Source: Naegleria gruberi | Taxonomy: Eukaryota | NCBI GenBank assembly: GCA_000004985.1 | Contig: GG738856.1 | DNA: 64,000 nucleotides | Reading direction: 5' to 3' (one strand) | Shown here: piece after piece, positions 14,291-57,400 of the stretch | Position numbering within the stretch: position 1 is the first letter of the stretch | How the letters are laid out: the number at the start of each line of letters is the position of its first letter | Position numbers and translations under genes: made by a program | Notes under the pieces: model-generated | Told to the model about the DNA's origin: nothing | What the model saw: only the letters and a program-made list of their open reading frames with translations | The model's database searches: none

Positions 14291-14860
14291 ATGCTCGAAA
14301 GATACTTGAAATCCCTGCTGACAGGAAGCAAATTCAATCTACCAACAACCTTCTCTCAACTTTTCCGATCCCCTCATTTCGAAACCATGATGGGCATGGG
14401 TAATTTAGATTATGCTCATCCGGAGGTGAAACGAATTCTTCGTCATCACTCTCACGATCCAAAGACTTTCTTTGTATTCGAGCCTCCAATCGATGTCAGA
14501 GAACACGAGAAGAAATTCATCATTCATGCAGATGTTCCAGGCTTTCACAAGAATAATATTTCAGTGACGGTCACTGATGAAGAAAGAGGAGAAATTTGTA
14601 TTAAGGGAAATTTAGTAGATTTAGAGGAAAAACAAATGAAAGAGGAGGAACAAGTTTTTGGAAAGTATCTCATACAGGAAAGAGTTTTAGTTCCAGAATT
14701 TGAAAGGAAAGTAGTCTTGCATAATCCATCAGAAATTGATTGGGATAATATTAATGCTTCCATTGCTCATGGTCAACTCAATATTGATATTCCAAAGAAG
14801 GATGTTCCTTCCAAACCACCAAAGGAATCAAAAATTATTCCAATCTCTGAAGAACCTTAA
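14291..14860 (+). CDS. small heat-shock protein (HSP20/alpha-crystallin domain)
   Basis: 189-aa ORF containing FIIHADVPGFHKNNISVTV ... AHGQLNIDIPKK, the characteristic alpha-crystallin domain signature. Unspliced. Confidence 0.85.
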   Translation: MLERYLKSLLTGSKFNLPTTFSQLFRSPHFETMMGMGNLDYAHPEVKRILRHHSHDPKTFFVFEPPIDVREHEKKFIIHADVPGFHKNNISVTVTDEERGEICIKGNLVDLEEKQMKEEEQVFGKYLIQERVLVPEFERKVVLHNPSEIDWDNINASIAHGQLNIDIPKKDVPSKPPKESKIIPISEEP

Positions 14861-15311: not shown

Positions 15312-16470
15312 ATGGATCAATATTAGTAAGTACAAGACATGATGATTGTGGATTTAATCAATGATGCGGATATTCAAACAACAGTATCATTAAAATCTTG
15401 GGAAGAGGTTCTGAAGGTAAGTGGCTTGGTGAAATGTTCATGTCACTAATCAATCAATAGGACAAGTATTGTTAGCAGAACACAAGAAAACTCATGAAGA
15501 AGTTGCCATCAAGCGTATGGAATGGGCTTCTTTCGACGATGCTAACCTTCATTTAAACGAAGCTCAAAAGTTGCGAGATTTAAATCACAAGAATATTATG
15601 AAATACCTCAAGGTATTCTTGAACAAGTATAGTACAGACACTCACTTTGTTTGTCTGTGTATAGAGTACTGCCCTGGAGGAGATTTACAACAATTCATTT
15701 CGAGTACATGCAAGAAGGGAAAAATAGCAGAGAAGGATATTCTCAGCTATGCAGAACAAATAGCAGCAGGTCTTCAATATTTACACGAGCACAATATTAT
15801 TCACAGAGATTTGAAACCTCAGAATATTTTAATTGCTGCAGGTAGGTCACAAACATTTTCAATTGATTTTACAAATATTATAAGATGGTACACTTAAAAT
15901 TGGAGATTTTGGAATTAGTAGACAATTGGGAACTCAATCTATGGCCAATACTCAATGTGGTACTATTCAATATATGAGCTATGAAATGCTTAACATGGCA
16001 CCTTATGATCAAGCAACTGACATGTACTCATTTGGAGTGTAAGTTGATTTTAAAAAGCTCATATATTTTTCTAACTATTATGGTCAACCATTTCATTGGA
16101 TAGAATTCTTCTTCAAATGATTACTGGAAAGCAAATGATGATTCCTATGGAACTGAGAAAGAATCCAAACTTTCTCGTTGAATTGGAACATCAATGTGTC
16201 AAGACATTGGGCTACTCTCAGGAATTATTTGCCCTAGCCAAAAATTTAGTGAGCTATGATCCAAGAGAACGGCCAACGGCAGAGAAGGTTCTCAAATCCC
16301 TGACAAAAATCAGATCGAGCGACAAGCATGGAAATTTGAAATTGGTATTTAAGGATTTTAACCAATTATCTGACGTTTTAAAAATTAGAGTATTTTCCTT
16401 TTTACAAATTGAAGACATGTATCATGTAGGTCTATCATGTAGACAATATTATTGGTTATGGGAACAACAT
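15312..16470 (+). CDS. Ser/Thr protein kinase (NEK-like) with a C-terminal F-box motif; exons 15312..15325, 15385..15416, 15461..15841, 15885..16038, 16104..16470
   Basis: Hand-built model. MDQYY|IIKILGRGSEG|QVLLAEHKKTHEEVAIKRM has the Gly-loop and VAIK. HRDLKPQNILIAA|DGTLKIGDFG and DMYSFGV|ILLQMITG follow. The introns are 59, 44, 43 and 65 nt with GTAAGT or GTAGGT donors and YAG acceptors. The last exon continues in frame into LSDVLKIRVFSFLQIEDMYHVGLSCRQYYWLWEQH, an F-box consensus. This exon ends at a canonical GTAAGT donor (16471). Confidence 0.75.
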
Positions 16471-16606
16471 GTAAGTTTTTTTCAATTCCTAACCTCCTCA
16501 TCAATTCATATTTTTTTGCATGTATTCAATTCAATATTTCCTTTAACTTTTTACCAAATTGGTAATAACTTGAATGCATACAACATTTACATTCAATTTT
16601 ACATAG

Positions 16607-17810
16607 TGGTGGAGCCAATTTATGAATACCAAAGCAGGAGAGGAGATTTTAAAGAATTCTTCCTCAATCTATTCCAAACCAACTCCAAGAAAACGAGCTG
16701 GGAGCGCCAACAATAATCACAGACCTGGTAGTGAGCTATCTCTAGAATCAATGACCACCAGTGCTGAGAAAGTTTCTTCTCCCCTATCCACATCACTCCC
16801 AACCACACAAACAGAAAAGAATATTTTCAAACAACAAGCATTCAACTATGTCAAAATCCAAAAACCTAAAAAGAGACGTGACATGAATAAGAGAGGTAAA
16901 AGTGTTGTCAGTGAAATACATCCATCACAAGTCCAAGAAGCAGCTACCTTCCTCATGAATTGTTTCAAATCTCCAAACTTTAACAAGTATTCCTCCACTA
17001 ACGATGCTGAAAATACAGCTCCAATTACATCTTCCAATTATGAATCAGGCCAAACATCCAAAACGTCCGAGCAAAGCAAACGAGACAGTGGCATTACTGC
17101 TGAAACCTCTACCACATCCACACTGATGGAAACTAACGAATTGCACCCACTCTTGAGTTACATTTTCAAAACTGGGATTATGGAAGATGTATCGGATGAA
17201 GCTCTTCTGTTCCTCTGTACCATGATCGTCAAGTACGGTATCAAATATGGTAGGATTTATGTCAGTACACACTATCCACTCAATAATGAATCAAAGGAGA
17301 TTCAAGCCATTTCCATATGGCAACATCCATTCAACTCAAAGGGAGTAGATTTGTGGAAATTAGTAAGACTGGGTATTGGGAAGGCTCCCAAAGCTCTGTA
17401 AGTATTTTTTTATGTAATGCTCATATTTGATTCATCATTATGATGATGGTTGTTGTTTGCTATTTAGTGGTTTCAAAGGTCTATATCGAGTCAACAAGGC
17501 TGCCAAAGCATTAGAAATGGTACATGGTAAGCTTCTTCCCCAAAACGATAAACCACATTGGACTCTTCTAAGTTTGGTTGTCAAACCAGAATTGAGACGC
17601 AGGGGCCTTGGCTCTGAAGTTATTCTACCAATCATTAGATTATCAGATGAAGCAACACTCCCCATCTATACATTTGTTTATCACTACGAGTCCAAAACAA
17701 AAGAAAATAAGCTCATCAATTTCCTTAAAAGGCAAGGTTTTGATGTTCGTGAAAACATTGCTCCAGCAAACGGCCCTCCTTTTACAGTTCTGATAAGGTA
17801 TGGCAATTAA
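16607..17810 (+). CDS. S/T-rich linker plus GNAT-family N-acetyltransferase-like domain (exons 16607..17397 and 17468..17810), probably the 3' part of the kinase/F-box gene
   Basis: Acceptor ACATAG|TGG at 16606 is in phase with the donor at 16470 (136-nt intron). A 70-nt GTAAGT..TATTTAG intron joins the two ORFs. The C-terminal HWTLLSLVVKPELRRRGLGSEVIL resembles GNAT acetyl-CoA-binding motif A (R/Q-x-x-G-x-G/A). Alternatively it is a separate gene starting at ATG 16622. Confidence 0.55.
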
Positions 17811-18340: not shown

Positions 18341-18745
18341 ATGCCTAATAATAATAGTATATCGAACGTACCAATCTTGGACTCACAATTAGTCAGTAAG
18401 GTAAAGCTGGAATTGAAAATGAAGGAGGAAACAATTAAGGAATTAAGAAATCAATTGAAATATTATCAGGAAACACAATGTTCTGCCTGTTTAGCCAATA
18501 GATCCTATCACGCCCCTCCTTCGGATGATGAGCATGACGAAGATGAACATGATCAACATCATTTGGAGAATTATACAATTACTAAAACAACCACGGAACC
18601 AGGGGTTGTCTATAACACTGAAGCACACAATATGGGTCTTAAGAACGATTGGCTTGCACCAGCAACAACAGGAAGAAGACAATCCATACAATTGAATAAC
18701 ATATATGAAAGTGAAATTCAAGATTTAATTGCAAAGAAGAAATAG
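18341..18745 (+). CDS. hypothetical coiled-coil protein
   Basis: 134-aa ORF with a heptad-like N-terminus (KVKLELKMKEETIKELRNQLKYYQE) and an acidic/His patch. No domain identified. Confidence 0.3.
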   Translation: MPNNNSISNVPILDSQLVSKVKLELKMKEETIKELRNQLKYYQETQCSACLANRSYHAPPSDDEHDEDEHDQHHLENYTITKTTTEPGVVYNTEAHNMGLKNDWLAPATTGRRQSIQLNNIYESEIQDLIAKKK

Positions 18746-18994: not shown

Positions 18995-21541
18995 TTATTG
19001 GTAGGTTGGTTGGGTGTAAAGTTGAATCAATTGTGCTTTGAGAGGATGATTGTGTGGATCGTGGGCAATGTGGAATAAAATGTGGTGGAATTGAGGGAGA
19101 TTTCTTGGGATTAACTTTAAAATATTGGAAAGGATTGGGTACAGGATATCAGGAGTCAATGTGTGATAATATGACATAAAGAAAGGAATAAATTGTTGGA
19201 TGAGAGTTTGATACCACATATTGAGTTGTACCATTTGCTGTTGTTGATATTTAGGAGAGAGTATGGTAATAGCTCTATTGAGCAAGGCGTTGAGGAATTC
19301 AATGGAGGAAGGTGGACTTCTCATTAATTGTACCAACACTAGTGTAATTGTACCAATATTGACTATCGAATTCAAGCTCTTAATCATGGATTCTACAAGT
19401 TGAGGATTGGTGGAATGTTCAGCAATCAAAATTGGAATCATATCAAGGAGCAACTTGGTATTGAAAGGTTGTGGAAGAATATTGAGACACTTGCAAATAA
19501 ATTTCTTTCCTTTTGGAATATTCCAAATTTCTTGGTGATATAAAAGATAGGAAGCAACAGTTTGACAATTAACATAAGAAGATTCAGCAACTTTTGGAGA
19601 AATTTCCTTAGAATGTTGAGCAACAGTTTGGAATTCTTCAATTTCAATCAAAAGAGTCAAACCATTCTCAATGCATGTTCTCAATTGAATTGGATTGTTA
19701 TAGACAAGTCTAGTACGTAACTCTGATGGTATTCTCTTATGTTTGTAATATTGGTCGACAACTTCATCACGGAATACATTAGTATCAAAGCATGTTCTTG
19801 GAGTTCTGACATTTTGAGATGGAATTCTACCAAATAATCTAGCAGGTGGTGTTGTTGTTGTTGTGGTGGTTGTAGAAGTATTATTGGTTCCTTGTTGTTG
19901 ATTAGATGTGGCTGTTTGTCTGGCATTTTCTCTTTCTTCCTCTTCTTCAGTTAGATGCTTGCTAAGAAGGTCAATAGTTTGTTCAGTATTGTTATTTTTC
20001 ACAAAGTAATAATAATCATCAGAGTATCCATTGTGTACTTGTAAATCTACCATTTGTTGACGAATAATAGTTTCCACTTCATCAATTCTCATAAATTGGA
20101 TAATTCTATGTGGTTTTTCATTGTTATTATTATTGTTGTTGTGAGATCTATTATTATTGTTAAATCTGTGGAACTTGTTTCTTTGATCTTGAGGTGTTGG
20201 AATCTTGTTCAAAACTTCATTAACTACAACCTTGTTAATAACATTGTAACAGTCAGTCTTATCTTCAGTATTATAAGTATTATATTTAACCATCAAATAG
20301 GAAGGTGTAGAAGTTTGTTGATTTGTTGTTGTTCCTCCTGATGTAGTATTGTTGGTAGTACTTGTTGTTGTTGGTGCTTGTTGCTTTTCTCCCTTTACTA
20401 ATTCGGGATGTTTGTGAGCAACAGTAGTTGGTAAAAATTCGAGAGGTTCCAAACCACCAGAGATTGGAATTCTTGAATTTGCTGCAATAGTAGCACTAAC
20501 TTCAGTATTGGTAAATCCAAAAGGTGAATTGGCACCACTTGATAATTGATGAGTACTAGATCTACCACTTCCACTGCTCTTATCATCTTCATCTTCCTCA
20601 GAAATCAAGTCTGTGATATAGTGAAGTCCTGTACTTTGTTTTGTAGAAGAACCAGAAGTTGTGTGGTGATGAGTGCCTACAGTTGATACACCTCCTGATG
20701 AACCACTACCGGAACCAGCAAAGAATGAACCAAGGAAGGCATCATCATTTTGATTATCATTAGCAGTACCCCACAAGGAAGCACTTCCATTATTACTTCC
20801 TTGACGAATGTGTTGTCCTCCACCAATAATTGATGATTGTGTAGCACCACTATTTGGACTGGCTCCCAAAATATTAGAAAGGAATGAACCAGAAGGTGAT
20901 GTAGCGGAAGGAGAACCTAACAAGATATTTGTTGCTCTTGGTGAAGAAATAACTGGTTGATGTGTAAAACTTCCAAAACTACCACTATTATTACTACCAA
21001 AACTACCAAAAGAACCAGTGTTTGTATGGTGATGAGAAGGTGTTCCACCAGGAATATAATTTGATGGTGAAGATGGTGAATGTCCAATAGGAATACCAAA
21101 ACCGCTACCAGTGCTACTTCCACTTGTATTTAAAGAAGAGTGAGCATTGTGAAAACCAGCAGCACTTCCTCCTGGAGAGCTAGTAGAGCCAAACAAGGAA
21201 TGTTGTTGTTGAGAATGTTGATAGTGGTGTTGTTGTGAATGTTGTGGGAGGCTTGATGTTGTATGGCTGGAAAAAGCCTTCTTTCCATTCCAATCATCAT
21301 CCACAGAATAGTATGGACGGGATCCACGAACAAGATCAGAAGCATCATTGTTAGAAATAAAAAAGCCTCCATCATCACCTTCATCACCAAAAGTTTCATC
21401 ATTTTTATCATCATCATACTCATTAACGGATAGTTTTTTAGCGAGACGATTATCCAAGTCATCGAACGAACCCTGTCCTAAATCATCATTCAACAAGGAA
21501 GGGTTGAAAAAGTCATTATCATCCTCACTTGGCGAAGACAT
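18995..21541 (-). CDS. PAT1-like protein (mRNA decapping/decay factor homologue) with a long low-complexity middle region
   Basis: 848-aa ORF. The acidic N-terminus contains KNDETFGDEGDDGGF, the conserved Pat1 N-terminal DETFG motif. The central portion is S/G/N/Q/H-rich and low-complexity. The C-terminal roughly 300 aa are predicted helical (Pat1 C-domain-like). Unspliced. Confidence 0.65.
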   Translation of the reverse strand: MSSPSEDDNDFFNPSLLNDDLGQGSFDDLDNRLAKKLSVNEYDDDKNDETFGDEGDDGGFFISNNDASDLVRGSRPYYSVDDDWNGKKAFSSHTTSSLPQHSQQHHYQHSQQQHSLFGSTSSPGGSAAGFHNAHSSLNTSGSSTGSGFGIPIGHSPSSPSNYIPGGTPSHHHTNTGSFGSFGSNNSGSFGSFTHQPVISSPRATNILLGSPSATSPSGSFLSNILGASPNSGATQSSIIGGGQHIRQGSNNGSASLWGTANDNQNDDAFLGSFFAGSGSGSSGGVSTVGTHHHTTSGSSTKQSTGLHYITDLISEEDEDDKSSGSGRSSTHQLSSGANSPFGFTNTEVSATIAANSRIPISGGLEPLEFLPTTVAHKHPELVKGEKQQAPTTTSTTNNTTSGGTTTNQQTSTPSYLMVKYNTYNTEDKTDCYNVINKVVVNEVLNKIPTPQDQRNKFHRFNNNNRSHNNNNNNNEKPHRIIQFMRIDEVETIIRQQMVDLQVHNGYSDDYYYFVKNNNTEQTIDLLSKHLTEEEEERENARQTATSNQQQGTNNTSTTTTTTTTPPARLFGRIPSQNVRTPRTCFDTNVFRDEVVDQYYKHKRIPSELRTRLVYNNPIQLRTCIENGLTLLIEIEEFQTVAQHSKEISPKVAESSYVNCQTVASYLLYHQEIWNIPKGKKFICKCLNILPQPFNTKLLLDMIPILIAEHSTNPQLVESMIKSLNSIVNIGTITLVLVQLMRSPPSSIEFLNALLNRAITILSPKYQQQQMVQLNMWYQTLIQQFIPFFMSYYHTLTPDILYPILSNILKLIPRNLPQFHHILFHIAHDPHNHPLKAQLIQLYTQPTYQ

Positions 21542-45641: not shown

Positions 45642-48600
45642 NNNNNNNNNNNNNNNNNNNNNNNNNNNNNNNNNNNNNNNNNNNNNNNNNNNNNNNNNNN
45701 NNNNNNNNNNNNNNNNNNNNNNNNNNNNNNNNNNNNNNNNNNNNNNNNNNNNNNNNNNNNNNNNNNNNNNNNNNNNNNNNNNNNNNNNNNNNNNNNNNNN
45801 NNNNNNNNNNNNNNNNNNNNNNNNNNNNNNNNNNNNNNNNNNNNNNNNNNNNNNNNNNNNNNNNNNNNNNNNNNNNNNNNNNNNNNNNNNNNNNNNNNNN
45901 NNNNNNNNNNNNNNNNNNNNNNNNNNNNNNNNNNNNNNNNNNNNNNNNNNNNNNNNNNNNNNNNNNNNNNNNNNNNNNNNNNNNNNNNNNNNNNNNNNNN
46001 NNNNNNNNNNNNNNNNNNNNNNNNNNNNNNNNNNNNNNNNNNNNNNNNNNNNNNNNNNNNNNNNNNNNNNNNNNNNNNNNNNNNNNNNNNNNNNNNNNNN
46101 NNNNNNNNNNNNNNNNNNNNNNNNNNNNNNNNNNNNNNNNNNNNNNNNNNNNNNNNNNNNNNNNNNNNNNNNNNNNNNNNNNNNNNNNNNNNNNNNNNNN
46201 NNNNNNNNNNNNNNNNNNNNNNNNNNNNNNNNNNNNNNNNNNNNNNNNNNNNNNNNNNNNNNNNNNNNNNNNNNNNNNNNNNNNNNNNNNNNNNNNNNNN
46301 NNNNNNNNNNNNNNNNNNNNNNNNNNNNNNNNNNNNNNNNNNNNNNNNNNNNNNNNNNNNNNNNNNNNNNNNNNNNNNNNNNNNNNNNNNNNNNNNNNNN
46401 NNNNNNNNNNNNNNNNNNNNNNNNNNNNNNNNNNNNNNNNNNNNNNNNNNNNNNNNNNNNNNNNNNNNNNNNNNNNNNNNNNNNNNNNNNNNNNNNNNNN
46501 NNNNNNNNNNNNNNNNNNNNNNNNNNNNNNNNNNNNNNNNNNNNNNNNNNNNNNNNNNNNNNNNNNNNNNNNNNNNNNNNNNNNNNNNNNNNNNNNNNNN
46601 NNNNNNNNNNNNNNNNNNNNNNNNNNNNNNNNNNNNNNNNNNNNNNNNNNNNNNNNNNNNNNNNNNNNNNNNNNNNNNNNNNNNNNNNNNNNNNNNNNNN
46701 NNNNNNNNNNNNNNNNNNNNNNNNNNNNNNNNNNNNNNNNNNNNNNNNNNNNNNNNNNNNNNNNNNNNNNNNNNNNNNNNNNNNNNNNNNNNNNNNNNNN
46801 NNNNNNNNNNNNNNNNNNNNNNNNNNNNNNNNNNNNNNNNNNNNNNNNNNNNNNNNNNNNNNNNNNNNNNNNNNNNNNNNNNNNNNNNNNNNNNNNNNNN
46901 NNNNNNNNNNNNNNNNNNNNNNNNNNNNNNNNNNNNNNNNNNNNNNNNNNNNNNNNNNNNNNNNNNNNNNNNNNNNNNNNNNNNNNNNNNNNNNNNNNNN
47001 NNNNNNNNNNNNNNNNNNNNNNNNNNNNNNNNNNNNNNNNNNNNNNNNNNNNNNNNNNNNNNNNNNNNNNNNNNNNNNNNNNNNNNNNNNNNNNNNNNNN
47101 NNNNNNNNNNNNNNNNNNNNNNNNNNNNNNNNNNNNNNNNNNNNNNNNNNNNNNNNNNNNNNNNNNNNNNNNNNNNNNNNNNNNNNNNNNNNNNNNNNNN
47201 NNNNNNNNNNNNNNNNNNNNNNNNNNNNNNNNNNNNNNNNNNNNNNNNNNNNNNNNNNNNNNNNNNNNNNNNNNNNNNNNNNNNNNNNNNNNNNNNNNNN
47301 NNNNNNNNNNNNNNNNNNNNNNNNNNNNNNNNNNNNNNNNNNNNNNNNNNNNNNNNNNNNNNNNNNNNNNNNNNNNNNNNNNNNNNNNNNNNNNNNNNNN
47401 NNNNNNNNNNNNNNNNNNNNNNNNNNNNNNNNNNNNNNNNNNNNNNNNNNNNNNNNNNNNNNNNNNNNNNNNNNNNNNNNNNNNNNNNNNNNNNNNNNNN
47501 NNNNNNNNNNNNNNNNNNNNNNNNNNNNNNNNNNNNNNNNNNNNNNNNNNNNNNNNNNNNNNNNNNNNNNNNNNNNNNNNNNNNNNNNNNNNNNNNNNNN
47601 NNNNNNNNNNNNNNNNNNNNNNNNNNNNNNNNNNNNNNNNNNNNNNNNNNNNNNNNNNNNNNNNNNNNNNNNNNNNNNNNNNNNNNNNNNNNNNNNNNNN
47701 NNNNNNNNNNNNNNNNNNNNNNNNNNNNNNNNNNNNNNNNNNNNNNNNNNNNNNNNNNNNNNNNNNNNNNNNNNNNNNNNNNNNNNNNNNNNNNNNNNNN
47801 NNNNNNNNNNNNNNNNNNNNNNNNNNNNNNNNNNNNNNNNNNNNNNNNNNNNNNNNNNNNNNNNNNNNNNNNNNNNNNNNNNNNNNNNNNNNNNNNNNNN
47901 NNNNNNNNNNNNNNNNNNNNNNNNNNNNNNNNNNNNNNNNNNNNNNNNNNNNNNNNNNNNNNNNNNNNNNNNNNNNNNNNNNNNNNNNNNNNNNNNNNNN
48001 NNNNNNNNNNNNNNNNNNNNNNNNNNNNNNNNNNNNNNNNNNNNNNNNNNNNNNNNNNNNNNNNNNNNNNNNNNNNNNNNNNNNNNNNNNNNNNNNNNNN
48101 NNNNNNNNNNNNNNNNNNNNNNNNNNNNNNNNNNNNNNNNNNNNNNNNNNNNNNNNNNNNNNNNNNNNNNNNNNNNNNNNNNNNNNNNNNNNNNNNNNNN
48201 NNNNNNNNNNNNNNNNNNNNNNNNNNNNNNNNNNNNNNNNNNNNNNNNNNNNNNNNNNNNNNNNNNNNNNNNNNNNNNNNNNNNNNNNNNNNNNNNNNNN
48301 NNNNNNNNNNNNNNNNNNNNNNNNNNNNNNNNNNNNNNNNNNNNNNNNNNNNNNNNNNNNNNNNNNNNNNNNNNNNNNNNNNNNNNNNNNNNNNNNNNNN
48401 NNNNNNNNNNNNNNNNNNNNNNNNNNNNNNNNNNNNNNNNNNNNNNNNNNNNNNNNNNNNNNNNNNNNNNNNNNNNNNNNNNNNNNNNNNNNNNNNNNNN
48501 NNNNNNNNNNNNNNNNNNNNNNNNNNNNNNNNNNNNNNNNNNNNNNNNNNNNNNNNNNNNNNNNNNNNNNNNNNNNNNNNNNNNNNNNNNNNNNNNNNNN

Positions 48601-49534
48601 NNNNNNNNNNNNNNNNNNNNNNNNNNNNNNNNNNNNNNNNNNNNNNNNNNNNNNNNNNNNNNNNNNNNNNNNNNNNNNNNNNNNNNNNNNNNNNNNNNNN
48701 NNNNNNNNNNNNNNNNNNNNNNNNNNNNNNNNNNNNNNNNNNNNNNNNNNNNNNNNNNNNNNNNNNNNNNNNNNNNNNNNNNNNNNNNNNNNNNNNNNNN
48801 NNNNNNNNNNNNNNNNNNNNNNNNNNNNNNNNNNNNNNNNNNNNNNNNNNNNNNNNNNNNNNNNNNNNNNNNNNNNNNNNNNNNNNNNNNNNNNNNNNNN
48901 NNNNNNNNNNNNNNNNNNNNNNNNNNNNNNNNNNNNNNNNNNNNNNNNNNNNNNNNNNNNNNNNNNNNNNNNNNNNNNNNNNNNNNNNNNNNNNNNNNNN
49001 NNNNNNNNNNNNNNNNNNNNNNNNNNNNNNNNNNNNNNNNNNNNNNNNNNNNNNNNNNNNNNNNNNNNNNNNNNNNNNNNNNNNNNNNNNNNNNNNNNNN
49101 NNNNNNNNNNNNNNNNNNNNNNNNNNNNNNNNNNNNNNNNNNNNNNNNNNNNNNNNNNNNNNNNNNNNNNNNNNNNNNNNNNNNNNNNNNNNNNNNNNNN
49201 NNNNNNNNNNNNNNNNNNNNNNNNNNNNNNNNNNNNNNNNNNNNNNNNNNNNNNNNNNNNNNNNNNNNNNNNNNNNNNNNNNNNNNNNNNNNNNNNNNNN
49301 NNNNNNNNNNNNNNNNNNNNNNNNNNNNNNNNNNNNNNNNNNNNNNNNNNNNNNNNNNNNNNNNNNNNNNNNNNNNNNNNNNNNNNNNNNNNNNNNNNNN
49401 NNNNNNNNNNNNNNNNNNNNNNNNNNNNNNNNNNNNNNNNNNNNNNNNNNNNNNNNNNNNNNNNNNNNNNNNNNNNNNNNNNNNNNNNNNNNNNNNNNNN
49501 NNNNNNNNNNNNNNNNNNNNNNNNNNNNNNNNNN
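45642..49534. other. assembly gap (N run, 3.9 kb)
   Basis: Contiguous N characters. Confidence 0.99.
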
Positions 49535-51436
49535 TGTTTTCCATCTGTGGAATAACTTTCACTTGCATCCAATAGAATATTTTCACAACTTGAATATGTT
49601 GTTTTTGAAGAAATTACAATTGTTGGGCGAATTGGATTTTCAGCATTTCCAATTTTGAATGATTGATAATCCTTTCCTAATTTGTTTCTATTAAACACAT
49701 TTCTATTCAACAAAATTTCTTGATCAACTTGAATAGAATGATCAGTTCCCAATTCAATAATAAAATCATTGGATGTCTTATTAGAATATCTACAAACTAC
49801 ATTAGAACCAAATGAGGAAATACTTGAAGAATCTAATAAATTGTTACAATCAACATTTAAGGATGTGAAATGATTTGGAGAGGTCATTTTGAAAAGTAAT
49901 CCATTTCCTTCATTATTGAAATGTACATTGGACATTTGAGTCATGCAATCTTCTCCATAAAATCCATCGTTGCAAGTATTACAATTAGTTCCATTCCAAT
50001 AACCGTTAGTTTCGTCTTGGAAACAAGTACAGAAACCATAGCCATCACATGTACCATGTGAATTGCATTTCAATGTAGCATTACATTTTTCAATAACTGT
50101 ACAATTAATTCCAGAGTATGGAATTTTACACTTGTCACATGTTTTTCCAACAAAGTGACCATCAATGTCATTATCAAAACATGAACAGTTATTTGGAGCA
50201 TTACATTTACCAACTCCATTGCAAACTTTCTTTGAATTCGATGAAATTCCATAGCAGATTGGATACTGACATATTGGCCCTTCGTAACCTTCCTCACAAA
50301 AACATCCAACAGTTGACATGTTGAATTTACATATACCATGTTGAGAACAAACTTTTGGATCTTTTTGTGGTAACCACATATCAACTCCTGCCTTACATAA
50401 AATCGTTTCACATTGTGGACCTATTGCTCTTCCACTTTCGGATTCCAAACAAGTGCATTGATTGGGACCTGTACATTTTCCTTGACCATTCGTGCAAACT
50501 CTAGAGTCATTATTGGATTTAAAACCAAAGCATGTATGAGAGGAACAAGTTTCTCCATCATATCCACCAAAACATTTGCATGTGTCCATGGTTGTGCATT
50601 GGCCATGGGAGGAACAAACTGATGAATTGAAAGATGGAATTCCAAAACAAGAATGGGAATCACATTTAGCCCCAAACCATTTAGGATTACACAAACAAAC
50701 ATCAGGGGAGAGGCATTTACCATGACCAGCACATACATTTGAATAGTTTGCTGGTAATCCAAAACACTTTGGAATTTCACAGAATTGTCCTGTCCAATGT
50801 GGATTGCATGAACACACATCTGTAGATACACAATCACCATTACCATTATTACAAACGTTTTGCACATCTTGTGAACTAGTTCCATTACACGAATGAACTG
50901 AACAATCAGCTCCAAACCAGCCCTTATTACAACGACAAGTGTCAGCATTAATACATTGACCATGACTTGAACAAACTGAAATATCACTGGAATTCACTGC
51001 AAAACATTTAGGAATTTCACACAATTGACCTGTCCATGTTTCATTACATAAACACAAATCTGTTCCAATGCACTGACCTCTTCCTCCATTACAAACATTT
51101 TGTAAATCTTGAGAGCTTGTTCCATTACATGAATGAATTGAACAATCAGCTCCAAACCATCCACTATTACAAGAGCATTTATCAGAGCTTATGCAATCTC
51201 CATGACCAGCACACACTTTTTTAGCAGTTGAAGCTAATCCGAAACATGTTGGAATTTCACAGAACTGGCCTGTCCAACCAGATTTACAATCACACTTATC
51301 CATTTGAATACATTCTCCATTACCCCCAGTGCACACGTGTTTTACATCTTGTGAGATTGTTCCATTACAGGAGTGAATATTACATAATGGACCAAACCAA
51401 CCTGTATTACATGGCAAGTATTAATATCAGTACAAT
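49535..51436 (-). CDS. partial CDS: tandem tenascin/laminin-type EGF-like Cys-rich repeats followed by a non-repeat segment; both ends run into gaps
   Basis: Ten or more units of CxxGWFGxxCxxHSCNGTSSQDxxNVCNGGxGxCxxxDxCxCNxxWTGQxCEIPKCFG. The repeats are also very similar at the DNA level (e.g. 50860..50940 vs 51100..51180). The C-terminal visible part (NVHFNNEGNG...SCENILLDASESYSTDGK) is non-repetitive. Confidence 0.75.
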
Positions 51437-54400
51437 ANNNNNNNNNNNNNNNNNNNNNNNNNNNNNNNNNNNNNNNNNNNNNNNNNNNNNNNNNNNNNNN
51501 NNNNNNNNNNNNNNNNNNNNNNNNNNNNNNNNNNNNNNNNNNNNNNNNNNNNNNNNNNNNNNNNNNNNNNNNNNNNNNNNNNNNNNNNNNNNNNNNNNNN
51601 NNNNNNNNNNNNNNNNNNNNNNNNNNNNNNNNNNNNNNNNNNNNNNNNNNNNNNNNNNNNNNNNNNNNNNNNNNNNNNNNNNNNNNNNNNNNNNNNNNNN
51701 NNNNNNNNNNNNNNNNNNNNNNNNNNNNNNNNNNNNNNNNNNNNNNNNNNNNNNNNNNNNNNNNNNNNNNNNNNNNNNNNNNNNNNNNNNNNNNNNNNNN
51801 NNNNNNNNNNNNNNNNNNNNNNNNNNNNNNNNNNNNNNNNNNNNNNNNNNNNNNNNNNNNNNNNNNNNNNNNNNNNNNNNNNNNNNNNNNNNNNNNNNNN
51901 NNNNNNNNNNNNNNNNNNNNNNNNNNNNNNNNNNNNNNNNNNNNNNNNNNNNNNNNNNNNNNNNNNNNNNNNNNNNNNNNNNNNNNNNNNNNNNNNNNNN
52001 NNNNNNNNNNNNNNNNNNNNNNNNNNNNNNNNNNNNNNNNNNNNNNNNNNNNNNNNNNNNNNNNNNNNNNNNNNNNNNNNNNNNNNNNNNNNNNNNNNNN
52101 NNNNNNNNNNNNNNNNNNNNNNNNNNNNNNNNNNNNNNNNNNNNNNNNNNNNNNNNNNNNNNNNNNNNNNNNNNNNNNNNNNNNNNNNNNNNNNNNNNNN
52201 NNNNNNNNNNNNNNNNNNNNNNNNNNNNNNNNNNNNNNNNNNNNNNNNNNNNNNNNNNNNNNNNNNNNNNNNNNNNNNNNNNNNNNNNNNNNNNNNNNNN
52301 NNNNNNNNNNNNNNNNNNNNNNNNNNNNNNNNNNNNNNNNNNNNNNNNNNNNNNNNNNNNNNNNNNNNNNNNNNNNNNNNNNNNNNNNNNNNNNNNNNNN
52401 NNNNNNNNNNNNNNNNNNNNNNNNNNNNNNNNNNNNNNNNNNNNNNNNNNNNNNNNNNNNNNNNNNNNNNNNNNNNNNNNNNNNNNNNNNNNNNNNNNNN
52501 NNNNNNNNNNNNNNNNNNNNNNNNNNNNNNNNNNNNNNNNNNNNNNNNNNNNNNNNNNNNNNNNNNNNNNNNNNNNNNNNNNNNNNNNNNNNNNNNNNNN
52601 NNNNNNNNNNNNNNNNNNNNNNNNNNNNNNNNNNNNNNNNNNNNNNNNNNNNNNNNNNNNNNNNNNNNNNNNNNNNNNNNNNNNNNNNNNNNNNNNNNNN
52701 NNNNNNNNNNNNNNNNNNNNNNNNNNNNNNNNNNNNNNNNNNNNNNNNNNNNNNNNNNNNNNNNNNNNNNNNNNNNNNNNNNNNNNNNNNNNNNNNNNNN
52801 NNNNNNNNNNNNNNNNNNNNNNNNNNNNNNNNNNNNNNNNNNNNNNNNNNNNNNNNNNNNNNNNNNNNNNNNNNNNNNNNNNNNNNNNNNNNNNNNNNNN
52901 NNNNNNNNNNNNNNNNNNNNNNNNNNNNNNNNNNNNNNNNNNNNNNNNNNNNNNNNNNNNNNNNNNNNNNNNNNNNNNNNNNNNNNNNNNNNNNNNNNNN
53001 NNNNNNNNNNNNNNNNNNNNNNNNNNNNNNNNNNNNNNNNNNNNNNNNNNNNNNNNNNNNNNNNNNNNNNNNNNNNNNNNNNNNNNNNNNNNNNNNNNNN
53101 NNNNNNNNNNNNNNNNNNNNNNNNNNNNNNNNNNNNNNNNNNNNNNNNNNNNNNNNNNNNNNNNNNNNNNNNNNNNNNNNNNNNNNNNNNNNNNNNNNNN
53201 NNNNNNNNNNNNNNNNNNNNNNNNNNNNNNNNNNNNNNNNNNNNNNNNNNNNNNNNNNNNNNNNNNNNNNNNNNNNNNNNNNNNNNNNNNNNNNNNNNNN
53301 NNNNNNNNNNNNNNNNNNNNNNNNNNNNNNNNNNNNNNNNNNNNNNNNNNNNNNNNNNNNNNNNNNNNNNNNNNNNNNNNNNNNNNNNNNNNNNNNNNNN
53401 NNNNNNNNNNNNNNNNNNNNNNNNNNNNNNNNNNNNNNNNNNNNNNNNNNNNNNNNNNNNNNNNNNNNNNNNNNNNNNNNNNNNNNNNNNNNNNNNNNNN
53501 NNNNNNNNNNNNNNNNNNNNNNNNNNNNNNNNNNNNNNNNNNNNNNNNNNNNNNNNNNNNNNNNNNNNNNNNNNNNNNNNNNNNNNNNNNNNNNNNNNNN
53601 NNNNNNNNNNNNNNNNNNNNNNNNNNNNNNNNNNNNNNNNNNNNNNNNNNNNNNNNNNNNNNNNNNNNNNNNNNNNNNNNNNNNNNNNNNNNNNNNNNNN
53701 NNNNNNNNNNNNNNNNNNNNNNNNNNNNNNNNNNNNNNNNNNNNNNNNNNNNNNNNNNNNNNNNNNNNNNNNNNNNNNNNNNNNNNNNNNNNNNNNNNNN
53801 NNNNNNNNNNNNNNNNNNNNNNNNNNNNNNNNNNNNNNNNNNNNNNNNNNNNNNNNNNNNNNNNNNNNNNNNNNNNNNNNNNNNNNNNNNNNNNNNNNNN
53901 NNNNNNNNNNNNNNNNNNNNNNNNNNNNNNNNNNNNNNNNNNNNNNNNNNNNNNNNNNNNNNNNNNNNNNNNNNNNNNNNNNNNNNNNNNNNNNNNNNNN
54001 NNNNNNNNNNNNNNNNNNNNNNNNNNNNNNNNNNNNNNNNNNNNNNNNNNNNNNNNNNNNNNNNNNNNNNNNNNNNNNNNNNNNNNNNNNNNNNNNNNNN
54101 NNNNNNNNNNNNNNNNNNNNNNNNNNNNNNNNNNNNNNNNNNNNNNNNNNNNNNNNNNNNNNNNNNNNNNNNNNNNNNNNNNNNNNNNNNNNNNNNNNNN
54201 NNNNNNNNNNNNNNNNNNNNNNNNNNNNNNNNNNNNNNNNNNNNNNNNNNNNNNNNNNNNNNNNNNNNNNNNNNNNNNNNNNNNNNNNNNNNNNNNNNNN
54301 NNNNNNNNNNNNNNNNNNNNNNNNNNNNNNNNNNNNNNNNNNNNNNNNNNNNNNNNNNNNNNNNNNNNNNNNNNNNNNNNNNNNNNNNNNNNNNNNNNNN

Positions 54401-57400
54401 NNNNNNNNNNNNNNNNNNNNNNNNNNNNNNNNNNNNNNNNNNNNNNNNNNNNNNNNNNNNNNNNNNNNNNNNNNNNNNNNNNNNNNNNNNNNNNNNNNNN
54501 NNNNNNNNNNNNNNNNNNNNNNNNNNNNNNNNNNNNNNNNNNNNNNNNNNNNNNNNNNNNNNNNNNNNNNNNNNNNNNNNNNNNNNNNNNNNNNNNNNNN
54601 NNNNNNNNNNNNNNNNNNNNNNNNNNNNNNNNNNNNNNNNNNNNNNNNNNNNNNNNNNNNNNNNNNNNNNNNNNNNNNNNNNNNNNNNNNNNNNNNNNNN
54701 NNNNNNNNNNNNNNNNNNNNNNNNNNNNNNNNNNNNNNNNNNNNNNNNNNNNNNNNNNNNNNNNNNNNNNNNNNNNNNNNNNNNNNNNNNNNNNNNNNNN
54801 NNNNNNNNNNNNNNNNNNNNNNNNNNNNNNNNNNNNNNNNNNNNNNNNNNNNNNNNNNNNNNNNNNNNNNNNNNNNNNNNNNNNNNNNNNNNNNNNNNNN
54901 NNNNNNNNNNNNNNNNNNNNNNNNNNNNNNNNNNNNNNNNNNNNNNNNNNNNNNNNNNNNNNNNNNNNNNNNNNNNNNNNNNNNNNNNNNNNNNNNNNNN
55001 NNNNNNNNNNNNNNNNNNNNNNNNNNNNNNNNNNNNNNNNNNNNNNNNNNNNNNNNNNNNNNNNNNNNNNNNNNNNNNNNNNNNNNNNNNNNNNNNNNNN
55101 NNNNNNNNNNNNNNNNNNNNNNNNNNNNNNNNNNNNNNNNNNNNNNNNNNNNNNNNNNNNNNNNNNNNNNNNNNNNNNNNNNNNNNNNNNNNNNNNNNNN
55201 NNNNNNNNNNNNNNNNNNNNNNNNNNNNNNNNNNNNNNNNNNNNNNNNNNNNNNNNNNNNNNNNNNNNNNNNNNNNNNNNNNNNNNNNNNNNNNNNNNNN
55301 NNNNNNNNNNNNNNNNNNNNNNNNNNNNNNNNNNNNNNNNNNNNNNNNNNNNNNNNNNNNNNNNNNNNNNNNNNNNNNNNNNNNNNNNNNNNNNNNNNNN
55401 NNNNNNNNNNNNNNNNNNNNNNNNNNNNNNNNNNNNNNNNNNNNNNNNNNNNNNNNNNNNNNNNNNNNNNNNNNNNNNNNNNNNNNNNNNNNNNNNNNNN
55501 NNNNNNNNNNNNNNNNNNNNNNNNNNNNNNNNNNNNNNNNNNNNNNNNNNNNNNNNNNNNNNNNNNNNNNNNNNNNNNNNNNNNNNNNNNNNNNNNNNNN
55601 NNNNNNNNNNNNNNNNNNNNNNNNNNNNNNNNNNNNNNNNNNNNNNNNNNNNNNNNNNNNNNNNNNNNNNNNNNNNNNNNNNNNNNNNNNNNNNNNNNNN
55701 NNNNNNNNNNNNNNNNNNNNNNNNNNNNNNNNNNNNNNNNNNNNNNNNNNNNNNNNNNNNNNNNNNNNNNNNNNNNNNNNNNNNNNNNNNNNNNNNNNNN
55801 NNNNNNNNNNNNNNNNNNNNNNNNNNNNNNNNNNNNNNNNNNNNNNNNNNNNNNNNNNNNNNNNNNNNNNNNNNNNNNNNNNNNNNNNNNNNNNNNNNNN
55901 NNNNNNNNNNNNNNNNNNNNNNNNNNNNNNNNNNNNNNNNNNNNNNNNNNNNNNNNNNNNNNNNNNNNNNNNNNNNNNNNNNNNNNNNNNNNNNNNNNNN
56001 NNNNNNNNNNNNNNNNNNNNNNNNNNNNNNNNNNNNNNNNNNNNNNNNNNNNNNNNNNNNNNNNNNNNNNNNNNNNNNNNNNNNNNNNNNNNNNNNNNNN
56101 NNNNNNNNNNNNNNNNNNNNNNNNNNNNNNNNNNNNNNNNNNNNNNNNNNNNNNNNNNNNNNNNNNNNNNNNNNNNNNNNNNNNNNNNNNNNNNNNNNNN
56201 NNNNNNNNNNNNNNNNNNNNNNNNNNNNNNNNNNNNNNNNNNNNNNNNNNNNNNNNNNNNNNNNNNNNNNNNNNNNNNNNNNNNNNNNNNNNNNNNNNNN
56301 NNNNNNNNNNNNNNNNNNNNNNNNNNNNNNNNNNNNNNNNNNNNNNNNNNNNNNNNNNNNNNNNNNNNNNNNNNNNNNNNNNNNNNNNNNNNNNNNNNNN
56401 NNNNNNNNNNNNNNNNNNNNNNNNNNNNNNNNNNNNNNNNNNNNNNNNNNNNNNNNNNNNNNNNNNNNNNNNNNNNNNNNNNNNNNNNNNNNNNNNNNNN
56501 NNNNNNNNNNNNNNNNNNNNNNNNNNNNNNNNNNNNNNNNNNNNNNNNNNNNNNNNNNNNNNNNNNNNNNNNNNNNNNNNNNNNNNNNNNNNNNNNNNNN
56601 NNNNNNNNNNNNNNNNNNNNNNNNNNNNNNNNNNNNNNNNNNNNNNNNNNNNNNNNNNNNNNNNNNNNNNNNNNNNNNNNNNNNNNNNNNNNNNNNNNNN
56701 NNNNNNNNNNNNNNNNNNNNNNNNNNNNNNNNNNNNNNNNNNNNNNNNNNNNNNNNNNNNNNNNNNNNNNNNNNNNNNNNNNNNNNNNNNNNNNNNNNNN
56801 NNNNNNNNNNNNNNNNNNNNNNNNNNNNNNNNNNNNNNNNNNNNNNNNNNNNNNNNNNNNNNNNNNNNNNNNNNNNNNNNNNNNNNNNNNNNNNNNNNNN
56901 NNNNNNNNNNNNNNNNNNNNNNNNNNNNNNNNNNNNNNNNNNNNNNNNNNNNNNNNNNNNNNNNNNNNNNNNNNNNNNNNNNNNNNNNNNNNNNNNNNNN
57001 NNNNNNNNNNNNNNNNNNNNNNNNNNNNNNNNNNNNNNNNNNNNNNNNNNNNNNNNNNNNNNNNNNNNNNNNNNNNNNNNNNNNNNNNNNNNNNNNNNNN
57101 NNNNNNNNNNNNNNNNNNNNNNNNNNNNNNNNNNNNNNNNNNNNNNNNNNNNNNNNNNNNNNNNNNNNNNNNNNNNNNNNNNNNNNNNNNNNNNNNNNNN
57201 NNNNNNNNNNNNNNNNNNNNNNNNNNNNNNNNNNNNNNNNNNNNNNNNNNNNNNNNNNNNNNNNNNNNNNNNNNNNNNNNNNNNNNNNNNNNNNNNNNNN
57301 NNNNNNNNNNNNNNNNNNNNNNNNNNNNNNNNNNNNNNNNNNNNNNNNNNNNNNNNNNNNNNNNNNNNNNNNNNNNNNNNNNNNNNNNNNNNNNNNNNNN

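Follow-up and report, generated by a model that had tools for sequence, protein, structure and literature searches.

The window analysed here, a stretch of 64,000 nucleotides of Naegleria gruberi DNA (contig GG738856.1, assembly GCA_000004985.1), raises the question of whether the coding segments for a Ser/Thr kinase, an F-box-like motif and a GNAT acetyltransferase-like fold that follow one another at its positions 15312-17810 belong to one spliced gene or to two adjacent ones. A preliminary description, made from the DNA letters, had favoured a single gene, and this view is supported by the comparison with relatives as well as by transcript evidence obtained for them. We conclude that one N. 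gruberi gene of seven exons on the + strand very probably encodes a three-module kinase/F-box/GNAT protein of 693 aa; its structure, the homologies of its three domains and the conservation of their fusion across Heterolobosea are established by the comparisons given here. Proteins of this kind are already present in public annotations and the modules are familiar singly. It is their joining in one chain that is unusual, and no published description of a kinase-F-box-acetyltransferase architecture was found in the literature.

Gene model and the junction between F-box and GNAT

The gene model was rebuilt from the sequence (Table 1). Its seven exons yield a coding sequence of 2082 nt, and all of its introns are of the GT..AG type with lengths of 43-136 nt. 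The N-terminus MDQYYIIKILGRGSEG occurs with the same letters in N. fowleri (P0001), in locus L003 and in Willaertia magna, and an in-frame TAA is located 18 nt upstream of the ATG at 15312. Comparison with an N. gruberi-like strain (L006, 98.9% identical) supports, at the level of sequence, the partition into exons and introns: 351 nt of non-exonic sequence contained 15 differing positions, all of them intronic and made up of 4 indels and 5 substitutions (2 of these substitutions in intron 5), as compared to 2 differences in 1126 nt of exonic sequence, one synonymous and one changing Ile to Val. Exact look-up in the protein collection of the 693-aa model, of a 397-aa kinase with read-through and of a 372-aa GNAT protein starting from the ATG at 16622 gave no match; that collection does contain EFC47022 and EFC47024, which flank the locus in N. 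gruberi, and the official N. gruberi model for the locus is presumably EFC47023/D2V8D1. No paralogue of the fusion gene was detected elsewhere within the 64-kb window.

Table 1. Exons, selected introns and encoded motifs of the fusion gene, in window coordinates
Feature	Position	Strand	Content
Exon 1	15312..15325	+	Met1, MDQY and split codon
Exon 2	15385..15416	+	Start of Gly-rich loop; GT..AG borders
Exon 3	15461..15841	+	Kinase N-lobe and catalytic loop; VAIK Lys33 15502-15519; HRDLKPQN 15802-15825
Exon 4	15885..16038	+	DFG 15905-15913; activation segment; GTIQYMSYE 15959-15985
Exon 5	16104..16470	+	Kinase C-lobe (Pkinase end aa 259, 16299), short spacer, F-box core
F-box core LSDVLKIRVFSFLQIEDMYHVGLSCRQYYWLWEQH	16366-16470 (aa 282-316)	+	In exon 5
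Intron 5	16471..16606	+	136 nt, phase 0, GTAAGT..TAG, 25% GC
Exon 6	16607..17397	+	WW motif, linker, basic motif, GNAT N-terminal parts
WWSQFMNTKAGEEILK motif	16607-16654	+	Start of exon 6, followed by S/T-rich linker
Basic motif KPKKRRDMNKRGK	16862-16900	+	Exon 6, after S/T-rich linker
GNAT beta1-alpha1 VVSEIHPSQVQEAATFLMNCF	16904-16966	+	Exon 6
Low-complexity insert, ~50 aa	16967-17140	+	Exon 6, within GNAT domain
GNAT alpha2 to helical hairpin	from 17141	+	Exon 6
Intron 6	17398..17467	+	70 nt, GTAAGT..TAG, inside GNAT domain
Exon 7	17468..17810	+	GNAT C-terminal half; stop TAA 17808-17810
KPHWTL	17550-17567	+	Exon 7
Acetyl-CoA P-loop RRRGLGSEV	17595-17621 (aa 623-631)	+	Exon 7
NFLKRQGF	17718-17741	+	Exon 7; Leu666 in place of usual Tyr

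The exon encoding the F-box ends exactly at the GTAAGT donor at 16471 and the next exon starts at 16607 after a TAG, in accordance with the preliminary description, which had also correctly placed the stop reached by reading through past 16470 at about 16716. Its term "frame-preserving" is right in that the intron is in phase 0 and its removal keeps the ORF, but a length of 136 nt is not a multiple of three. Intron 5 is the longest intron of the model and lies between the F-box core and the conserved WW continuation of this motif. Its position is shared among relatives, with lengths of 136 nt in N. gruberi, 81 nt in N. fowleri and 37 nt in L003, and the frame is restored each time. The intron is absent from at least five loci, namely L002 (P0004), L005 (P0007), L007, L008 and P0028, in which the F-box runs directly into WWxxF..TKxGxEI; in L005 (P0007), a single ORF of 507 aa leads from Met1 into the GNAT. 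Similarly, the position of intron 6 is shared by N. fowleri (107 nt), L003 (41 nt) and L002 (48 nt), and this intron is absent from P0013, P0015 and P0028. The homologue P0028 is 41% identical to the window protein and collinear with it over residues 1-691 in one ORF of 720 aa, which was found on at least 21 cDNA-like contigs of 2.3-3.2 kb. Poly(A) about 60 nt past the stop terminates 4 of the 6 contigs examined, and 2 of these 4 start with Illumina adapter remnants. For this homologue the contig sequences show one mRNA across the three domains, and the intron-less junctions of L002, L005, L007 and L008 imply the same.

Were the locus to hold two adjacent genes, a kinase-F-box gene would end after 16470 with the stop near 16716 and a GNAT gene would begin at the ATG at 16622, an arrangement to which the end of the read-through ORF, the presence of this ATG, the length of intron 5 and the annotation of a W. 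magna isoform without the GNAT core lend some support. However, the start at 16622 considered earlier is not conserved: the codon lies inside the conserved motif that continues from the F-box, and among the seven relatives compared at the junction its Met is kept only in N. fowleri and L003, the other five (W. magna, L002, L005, L007 and L008) having Ile, Val or Cys. Upstream of it, WWSQF is conserved and contiguous with the F-box in L002, L005, L007, L008 and P0028. Moreover, the parts are fused in three annotated genomes, both W. magna isoforms span the junction between F-box and linker, the polyadenylated transcripts of the homologue hold all three domains in one ORF, and intron 5, with its GC content of 25% and its substitutions between strains, is like the other introns. 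We therefore regard two genes as highly improbable and retain the single spliced gene.

Orthologues and related fusions

Orthologues with the order kinase-F-box-linker-GNAT seen in the window are annotated as collinear single proteins in N. fowleri (FDP41_001909, XP_044563552, 708 aa), N. lovaniensis (C9374_009323, 710 aa) and W. magna (ABK040_000587, isoforms of 730 and 555 aa). Between the N. fowleri and the window protein, identity is highest in the kinase (85%), the F-box and the GNAT core reaching 68% and 69%, respectively, and the 555-aa isoform of W. magna (P0006), which is without the GNAT core, shows 76% and 64% in the kinase and the F-box, respectively. N. fowleri shares with N. gruberi the positions of the intron that follows the F-box and of the one within the GNAT; as compared to the window, its gene has extra introns, apparently including a 10-nt kinase micro-exon like one that is spliced out in L003. 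In the sources, the orthologues go under no other names than 'hypothetical protein' or 'non-specific serine/threonine protein kinase', and since kinase families alone appear in the precomputed Pfam lists, the three-domain nature is left unstated there. For W. magna T5(S)44, a genome annotated with BRAKER2 and RNA-seq has been published (PMC11702301).

Among named organisms, the family appears restricted to Heterolobosea. The word-indexed homology searches were lossy, N. fowleri P0001 having once been unlisted, and absence from their lists means little. It is also unusual that paralogues and species with as little as about 40% identity still have the three modules united. A different combination was seen in P0037 and P0040, in which the same GNAT clade (224-227 bits to an HMM of stand-alone GNATs) is likewise joined to an E3-ligase module, this being a U-box/RING (U-box 45 bits) instead of an F-box and without a kinase. 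P0037 and P0040 come from public assemblies, Logan being the source of P0037, and the U-box-GNAT sequence stems from a transcript-like contig of 45% GC. Two sequences taken at first for kinase-less F-box-GNAT proteins were rejected, since the beginning of P0032 falls within subdomain XI of a kinase and L015 carries Pkinase ORFs ahead of P0030; thus, no kinase-less version of the family is shown.

The kinase, F-box and GNAT modules

The N-terminal module, aa 1-262, is a Ser/Thr kinase and matches Pfam Pkinase (PF00069) over aa 6-259 with 207 bits (cut-off 31.7; E 3e-61). Judged by its motifs the kinase is active-looking: LGRGSEG (GxGxxG loop), VAIK (K33), E49 (alphaC Glu), HRDLKPQN, DFG, SYE and DPRERP (subdomain XI Arg) make up a complete catalytic set, in which SYE represents the APE motif with Glu kept and AP changed, and the catalytic residues are invariant in seven relatives, the AP residues excepted. 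The LGRGSEGQV loop is split across exons 2 and 3. When the family profile was compared with solved kinases, NEK1 (162 bits) and NEK2 (154 bits) scored best, 14-22 bits above ULK1 (140 bits), with NEK7 at 139 bits, and a search with the single sequence gave 114 bits for NEK1 and 107 for MARK3, a lead of only 7 bits. The earlier designation as NEK-like is in line with these scores, which modestly support NEK1/NEK2 as the closest kinases. Complete catalytic motifs are shared with NEK1, NEK2 and NEK7; the window kinase differs in the small margin over ULK1, in SYE for APE and in its C-terminal partners, F-box and GNAT, whereas those of known NEKs are coiled coils and RCC1 repeats.

F-boxes are motifs that dock proteins onto SCF ubiquitin ligases. 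The F-box of the window protein comprises aa ~279-321 and continues over intron 5 into the conserved, helix-like WWxxF..TKxGxEI. On sequence grounds, this segment is homologous to the F-boxes of FBXW7 and Skp2, a relationship that is significant only with the family profile: built from seven family F-boxes and compared with PDB sequences, the profile retrieved FBXW7 (7.8e-5) and Skp2 (5e-4), followed by KDM2A/B and FBXL3, and 19 of the 21 listed hits were F-box proteins aligned on the F-box. PF12937 was matched by six of the seven family members (best E 1.7e-7). With Skp2, FBXW7, FBXL3 and KDM2A/B the segment shares, aligned over the whole motif, the pattern L-x-x-x-L..VFS.L...D......C+.W..L of about 40 residues. 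For this copy "textbook F-box", as it had been called, is overstated because helix 1 has LS for Leu-Pro and the window copy alone, at 15.6-16.1 bits against Pfam (PF00646/PF12937), is under the cut-off of 24.3. A Leu-Pro occurs at this place in N. fowleri, N. lovaniensis and L003, and an LN in both W. magna and L002. As in classical receptors, the F-box is N-terminal to a globular C-terminal domain; in contrast to them, this domain has the fold of a GNAT instead of WD40, LRR or any other fold known from receptors, and the F-box is preceded by an entire protein kinase. The window copy further differs in its LS for LP and its sub-threshold Pfam score, and its binding to Skp1 is putative.

The low score of the window copy, the LS or LN for LP and the lower identity of the F-box between orthologues (64-68%) as compared to the kinase (76-86%) would be in line with a single fused gene whose F-box-like segment no longer binds Skp1 and would act as an interaction motif or a structural bundle of helices, leaving a kinase and acetyltransferase without a link to a ubiquitin ligase. 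We find this rather unlikely, given that nearly all sequences retrieved by the family profile are genuine Skp1-binding F-boxes with the full motif aligned, and that several paralogues exceed the Pfam F-box thresholds (P0028 with 25.3 and 23.6, P0035 with 27.5, P0048 with 29.4, P0075 with 33.7 and P0030 with 37.6 bits). Furthermore, almost every family member examined has the segment, even at identities as low as about 40%, and the independent U-box fusion of the same GNAT clade also indicates ubiquitylation.

The C-terminal module is a puromycin-N-acetyltransferase (PAC)-like GNAT domain, aa ~415-693. The GNAT-like fold proposed earlier was borne out: Acetyltransf_1 matched the C-terminal segment alone with 22.7 bits (cut-off 20.7), the match lying within the last exon, and scored 20.1 bits against the same cut-off in full-length context, and the HMM of stand-alone GNATs, built from 92 GNATs of ~205 aa, matched the window protein with an E of 1.6e-42. 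A search of NCBIfam with the GNAT domain gave no match. The domain turned out to be larger than had been thought, as its conserved beta1-alpha1 segment VVSEIHPSQVQEAATFL is encoded at 16904-16966 in exon 6; therefore, part of what had been described as a Ser/Thr-rich linker preceding the GNAT is an insertion inside it. For AlphaFold, the N. fowleri orthologue was modelled with the two GNAT exon pieces of the window as alignment rows, and a run with 11 sequences (pLDDT 61.5) was set aside for one with 100 sequences. The predicted model agrees with the GNAT fold, which is defined by a mixed sheet with a V-shaped beta4/beta5 cleft. Between its beta3 and beta4 there is a helical insertion, located where PAC has its hallmark hairpin (PMC7933286).

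Following beta4, the motif A P-loop (Q/R-x-x-G-x-G/A) reads RRRGLGS at aa 623-629 with R-x-x-G-x-G intact, and its Gly columns are conserved in 96 and 92 of 100 family sequences. By contrast, the position of Tyr171, the proposed general acid of PAC, is occupied by Leu666 in the window; the same column contains Tyr in 74, Phe in 18 and Leu in 7 of the 100 family sequences, Leu being found in those of Naegleria/Willaertia type. With Leu in place of the usual general-acid Tyr in this orthologue group and the CoA-binding loop retained, the domain may serve less for efficient catalysis than for the binding of acetyl-CoA or a ligand. Degenerate P-loops in the paralogues P0035 and P0077 and the absence of the P-loop segment from L005 further imply that GNAT catalysis is not uniformly conserved. 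The identity to PAC (PDB 7K09/7K0A) is only ~20%, and as compared to PAC and to the large PAC-related family of stand-alone GNATs of ~205 aa, the beta1-alpha1 of the window domain is split off by a low-complexity insert, and kinase and F-box are joined to it in one chain.

Proposed function and significance

We propose that the protein may serve as an SCF substrate receptor equipped with a kinase of its own. The F-box would dock it on Skp1, and the GNAT, taken as the receptor module because it takes the place of the WD40 or LRR domains of classical F-box proteins, would bind a substrate or ligand or modify a substrate. Ubiquitylation would be gated by the tethered kinase through phosphorylation of the bound target or of the S/T-rich linker within the protein itself. 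As a whole, this mechanism of Skp1 docking, GNAT receptor and gating by a tethered kinase is put forward tentatively, as possible rather than likely.

The F-box of the single fused gene might instead serve mainly the turnover or regulation of the protein itself, as with F-box proteins that undergo auto-ubiquitylation within SCF. The actual effectors would then be the kinase and a catalytically active GNAT, which might for example both phosphorylate and acetylate one nuclear target. Kinase motifs and acetyl-CoA P-loop are indeed intact, and the conserved basic motif KPKKRRDMNKRGK resembles an NLS, a matter of resemblance only. Many GNATs function without a general-acid Tyr. PAC, too, is partly active without Tyr171 (PMC7933286). 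Despite this, we consider such a role unlikely in view of the Tyr to Leu exchange in the N. gruberi orthologue group and the P-loop decay in paralogues, both of which speak against conserved catalysis.

The analysis supplies a corrected N. gruberi gene model and an improved boundary of the GNAT domain. If the F-box is functional, the protein would be an SCF substrate receptor with its own kinase and with a receptor domain of acetyltransferase fold, and a compact system in which to study how phosphorylation and ubiquitylation interact with acetylation or with the sensing of acetyl-CoA. An orthologue is present in the pathogen N. fowleri and is of some interest as a lineage-specific kinase; the family being apparently confined to Heterolobosea among named organisms, it would be absent from the human host. 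A wider reading, which we judge distinctly unlikely, is that the PAC-like GNAT clade constitutes an unrecognised substrate- or ligand-recognition module of ubiquitin ligases, combined with an F-box in Heterolobosea and with a U-box in another eukaryote. If this were true, the heterolobosean proteins would be self-contained hubs in which a NEK-like kinase writes a phospho-mark, the target or a metabolite is selected or sensed by a GNAT that binds acetyl-CoA and may be non-catalytic, and SCF ubiquitylates the target, coupling acetyl-CoA status, phosphorylation and proteolysis in one polypeptide.

Gene structure and neighbourhood

The seven-exon spliced model proposed in the preliminary description was reproduced from the sequence, with a CDS of 2082 nt encoding 693 aa, six introns of 59, 44, 43, 65, 136 and 70 nt in order, and an in-frame TAA 18 nt 5' of the start codon. 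The region is AT-rich (32-36% GC) and its introns are short with GT..AG borders, which indicates a eukaryotic region. The F-box string (aa 282-316) ends at a GTAAGT donor, and the stop predicted for read-through past this exon was present. The 136-nt intron that follows had been described as frame-preserving; it is phase 0 and the ORF is kept once it is spliced, but its length is not a multiple of three.

Positions of the gene's features (exons from the model rebuilt from the sequence) and of neighbouring ORFs
Feature	Position	Strand	Remark
Exon 1	15312-15325	+	start codon at 15312
Exon 2	15385-15416	+	
Exon 3	15461-15841	+	
Exon 4	15885-16038	+	
Exon 5	16104-16470	+	
GTAAGT donor	16471	+	
Read-through stop	about 16716	+	
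Exon 6	16607-17397	+	
Exon 7	17468-17810	+	
RRRGLGSEV	17595-17621	+	aa 623-631
189-aa ORF	14291-14860	+	upstream, intron-less; 90%-identity cluster of NAEGRDRAFT_47488
NAEGRDRAFT_65115	18341-18742		exact look-up of neighbouring ORF
NAEGRDRAFT_65116	18998-21541	minus	exact look-up of neighbouring ORF

By the look of its translation, the upstream ORF resembles a small heat-shock (alpha-crystallin-type) protein. The sole record of its exact sequence is an ENA metagenome; the clustered N. gruberi protein has 157 aa, and one end of the database model may thus be different, for instance through a start at a later Met. The neighbouring ORFs identify the source as N. gruberi. The window has 16,196 N bases, in long runs at about 46-48 kb and 52-62 kb; these are scaffold gaps (46001-62000), and the sequence flanking them at 42-46 kb and 50-52 kb is very AT-rich (25-28% GC).

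One gene or two

The possibility that two adjacent genes, instead of one fused gene, occupy this locus was rejected on the basis of relatives' annotations, splice junctions, transcripts and a strain comparison. With the C-terminal 428 aa of the window protein as query, N. fowleri FDP41_001909 (708 aa) showed 61% identity at 100% coverage; since it carries kinase Pfam domains, it is annotated as a single fused protein. N. lovaniensis C9374_009323 (710 aa) belongs to the same cluster, and the 730-aa isoform (P0027) of Willaertia magna ABK040_000587 contains all three parts. The F-box/linker junction was compared in the DNA of relatives, N. fowleri and the loci L002, L003, L005, L007 and L008 among them. 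It reads ..LWEQH, a 136-nt intron and WWSQFMNTKAGEEI in the window, ..LWEEH, an 81-nt intron and WWRIFMTTTKVGDEI in N. fowleri, and ..LWDEQ, a 37-nt intron and WWSIFMTKTKAGKEI in the metagenome locus L003, whereas the intron is missing in L002 (..IWEEEWFKNFVTSTSIGKEI), L005, L007 and L008. The three intron lengths leave different remainders modulo 3, yet splicing restores the same frame each time, and the conserved post-junction motif is directly contiguous with the F-box in every intron-less locus. Moreover, the Met at 16622, put forward as a start to be sought by 5'-RACE, is not a conserved start, since five of the seven relatives examined here have Ile, Val or Cys instead.

L005, which is genomic given the convergent GPHR gene next to it, holds one 507-aa ORF running from the kinase Met1 into the GNAT domain. 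The homologue P0028 (720 aa) is 41% identical to the window protein and collinear across residues 1-691; at least 21 contigs, each 2.3-3.2 kb long, carry it. Of six examined, four have poly(A) about 60 nt past the stop, and two of these four start with Illumina adapter remnants. These contigs are full-length mRNAs with one ORF for kinase, F-box and GNAT. Furthermore, comparison of the window with L006, a second N. gruberi-like strain, gave 15 differing alignment positions across 351 intronic nt, frame-breaking indels among them, as compared to 2 across 1126 exonic nt. Comparative evidence and relatives' transcripts hence support a single kinase-F-box-GNAT gene. A one-base frame shift in the linker of L007 (4860-4900, between ..EIMQ and NHMYRERSGSS) is probably a 1-nt assembly error and not an intron; the related L008 reads straight through.

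Kinase, F-box and GNAT domains

Pfam Pkinase matched aa 6-259 (E 3e-61), and the Gly-rich loop, VAIK Lys33, Glu49, HRDLKPQN, DFG and DPRERP are present and invariant among relatives; APE is replaced by SYE. At the sequence level the catalytic core was shown to be intact. The designation NEK-like is reasonable, but family membership is tentative: a 7-member kinase profile scored best against NEK1 among PDB sequences (162 bits; NEK2 154, ULK1 140, NEK7 139), and the single sequence slightly preferred NEK1 (114 bits) to MARK3 (107 bits). L003 has a 10-nt micro-exon (1601-1610, ATAGAGATTT) between two introns splitting the catalytic-loop codons I-I-H-R-D-L-K, and a 193-nt gap at this position in N. 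fowleri (L001 6584-6776) implies the same micro-exon; unlike in both, the stretch is one uninterrupted exon in the window.

The F-box had been called textbook, which is overstated for this copy: it scored 15.6-16.1 bits against PF12937 (cut-off 24.3), below threshold alone, and reads LS where F-boxes usually have LP. Its homology is nevertheless real, as matches of relatives and to PDB sequences show: PF12937 was matched by six of seven family members (best E 1.7e-7), the F-boxes of more distant relatives (P0028, P0035, P0048, P0075, P0030) passed Pfam thresholds, and nearly all matches of the 7-member F-box profile against all PDB sequences were F-box domains aligned across the full motif, led by FBXW7 (7.8e-5) and Skp2 (5e-4), then KDM2A/B and FBXL3.

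The predicted GNAT domain was likewise confirmed. Searched against PDB sequences, a profile built on the last 199 aa matched puromycin N-acetyltransferase (PAC, 7K09; 1.7e-4). Scanning 1.84 billion representative proteins in full yielded 1140 relatives; of the 150 listed, most stand alone and are about 205 aa long. The HMM made from 92 such stand-alone proteins matched aa 486-690 (HMM positions 19-202, E 1.6e-42). A weak second piece (HMM 7-43) matched aa 417-453 (VSEIHPSQVQEAATFL...); 10 of the other family members searched show it too, at identical HMM positions, and both pieces merge into one continuous match in P0030, which has a short insert. The domain thus starts at about aa 415 (about 16904), so that part of the supposed Ser/Thr-rich linker lies inside it, with roughly aa 437-494 forming a low-complexity insertion between alpha1 and alpha2. 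The stretch coding for alpha1 (VNEAAKFLLQSF...) is removed by splicing in the W. magna 730-aa isoform; the 555-aa isoform (P0006) reads through it and terminates before the GNAT core, which it lacks. The region is Asn-rich, and the pair could reflect either genuine alternative splicing or an artefact of gene prediction.

A helical hairpin between beta3 and beta4 is distinctive of PAC and forms the acceptor entry (PMC7933286); helices are predicted at the same place in the AlphaFold model of the N. fowleri orthologue. The P-loop R-x-x-G-x-G is intact in the window GNAT, which likely binds CoA. Tyr171 is the proposed general acid of PAC, a role held by Tyr in most GNATs, whereas the window protein has Leu666 at the aligned position (within NFLKRQGF, 17718-17741). 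Among 100 family sequences this column holds 74 Tyr, 18 Phe and 7 Leu, the latter of Naegleria/Willaertia type; the paralogue group P0028, P0013 and P0015 keeps Tyr. Efficient catalysis by the window protein is uncertain. The P-loop is degraded in some paralogues (P0035, QKKNIAS; P0077), and in the divergent copy L005 (1500-1800, JGI 3300055473 contig) the segment with P-loop, alpha3 and beta5 is missing (HMM positions 134-171). The C-terminal piece of L005 is in frame only via a non-GT donor, for which gene degeneration, non-canonical splicing or a faulty assembly may account.

Distribution and proposed function

The architecture, in whole or in part, occurs in at least eight 50%-identity clusters (P0028, P0029, P0031, P0033, P0035, P0048, P0075/P0180, P0077). 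With P0077, W. magna has a second gene of this family (ABK040_012153), and paralogues therefore exist within one species. Every named member belongs to Heterolobosea, whereas the others stem from assemblies of metagenomes or SRA data. Proteins that seemed to consist of F-box and GNAT alone proved to be the final exons of genes that also encode a kinase. In P0037 (on L018, a 1357-nt transcript-like contig of 45% GC) and P0040, a GNAT of this clade (224-227 bits to the stand-alone HMM) is joined to a U-box/RING, which we read as an E3 association that arose independently. In more distant members, P0121 (1237 aa) and P0168 (1077 aa) among them, the GNAT forms the C-terminal domain of CLU-SPRY proteins and of PEP-utilising (PPDK_N) enzymes; fusion partners in this clade vary.

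Sequence comparison shows an F-box homologue, a GNAT that resembles PAC and has a CoA P-loop, and a conserved fusion. We propose that the F-box would dock the protein on Skp1 and that the GNAT, placed where classical F-box proteins have their substrate-binding domain, would serve to select, sense or modify its target, while the kinase would phosphorylate either this target or the linker, which is S/T-rich (31-36% Ser+Thr). By resemblance only, the basic motif KPKKRRDMNKRGK is a possible NLS. This role as an SCF receptor is tentative, its chances being somewhat short of even; it competes with the views that the F-box has decayed and has no SCF role, or that it acts in turnover of the protein itself. 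Searches of the literature gave no account of a kinase-F-box-GNAT protein, and public databases already list the proteins of three relatives, labelled only as hypothetical or as generic kinases. Taken together, the protein is a new combination of known parts, lineage-restricted among named organisms, for which the functional hypothesis is plausible.
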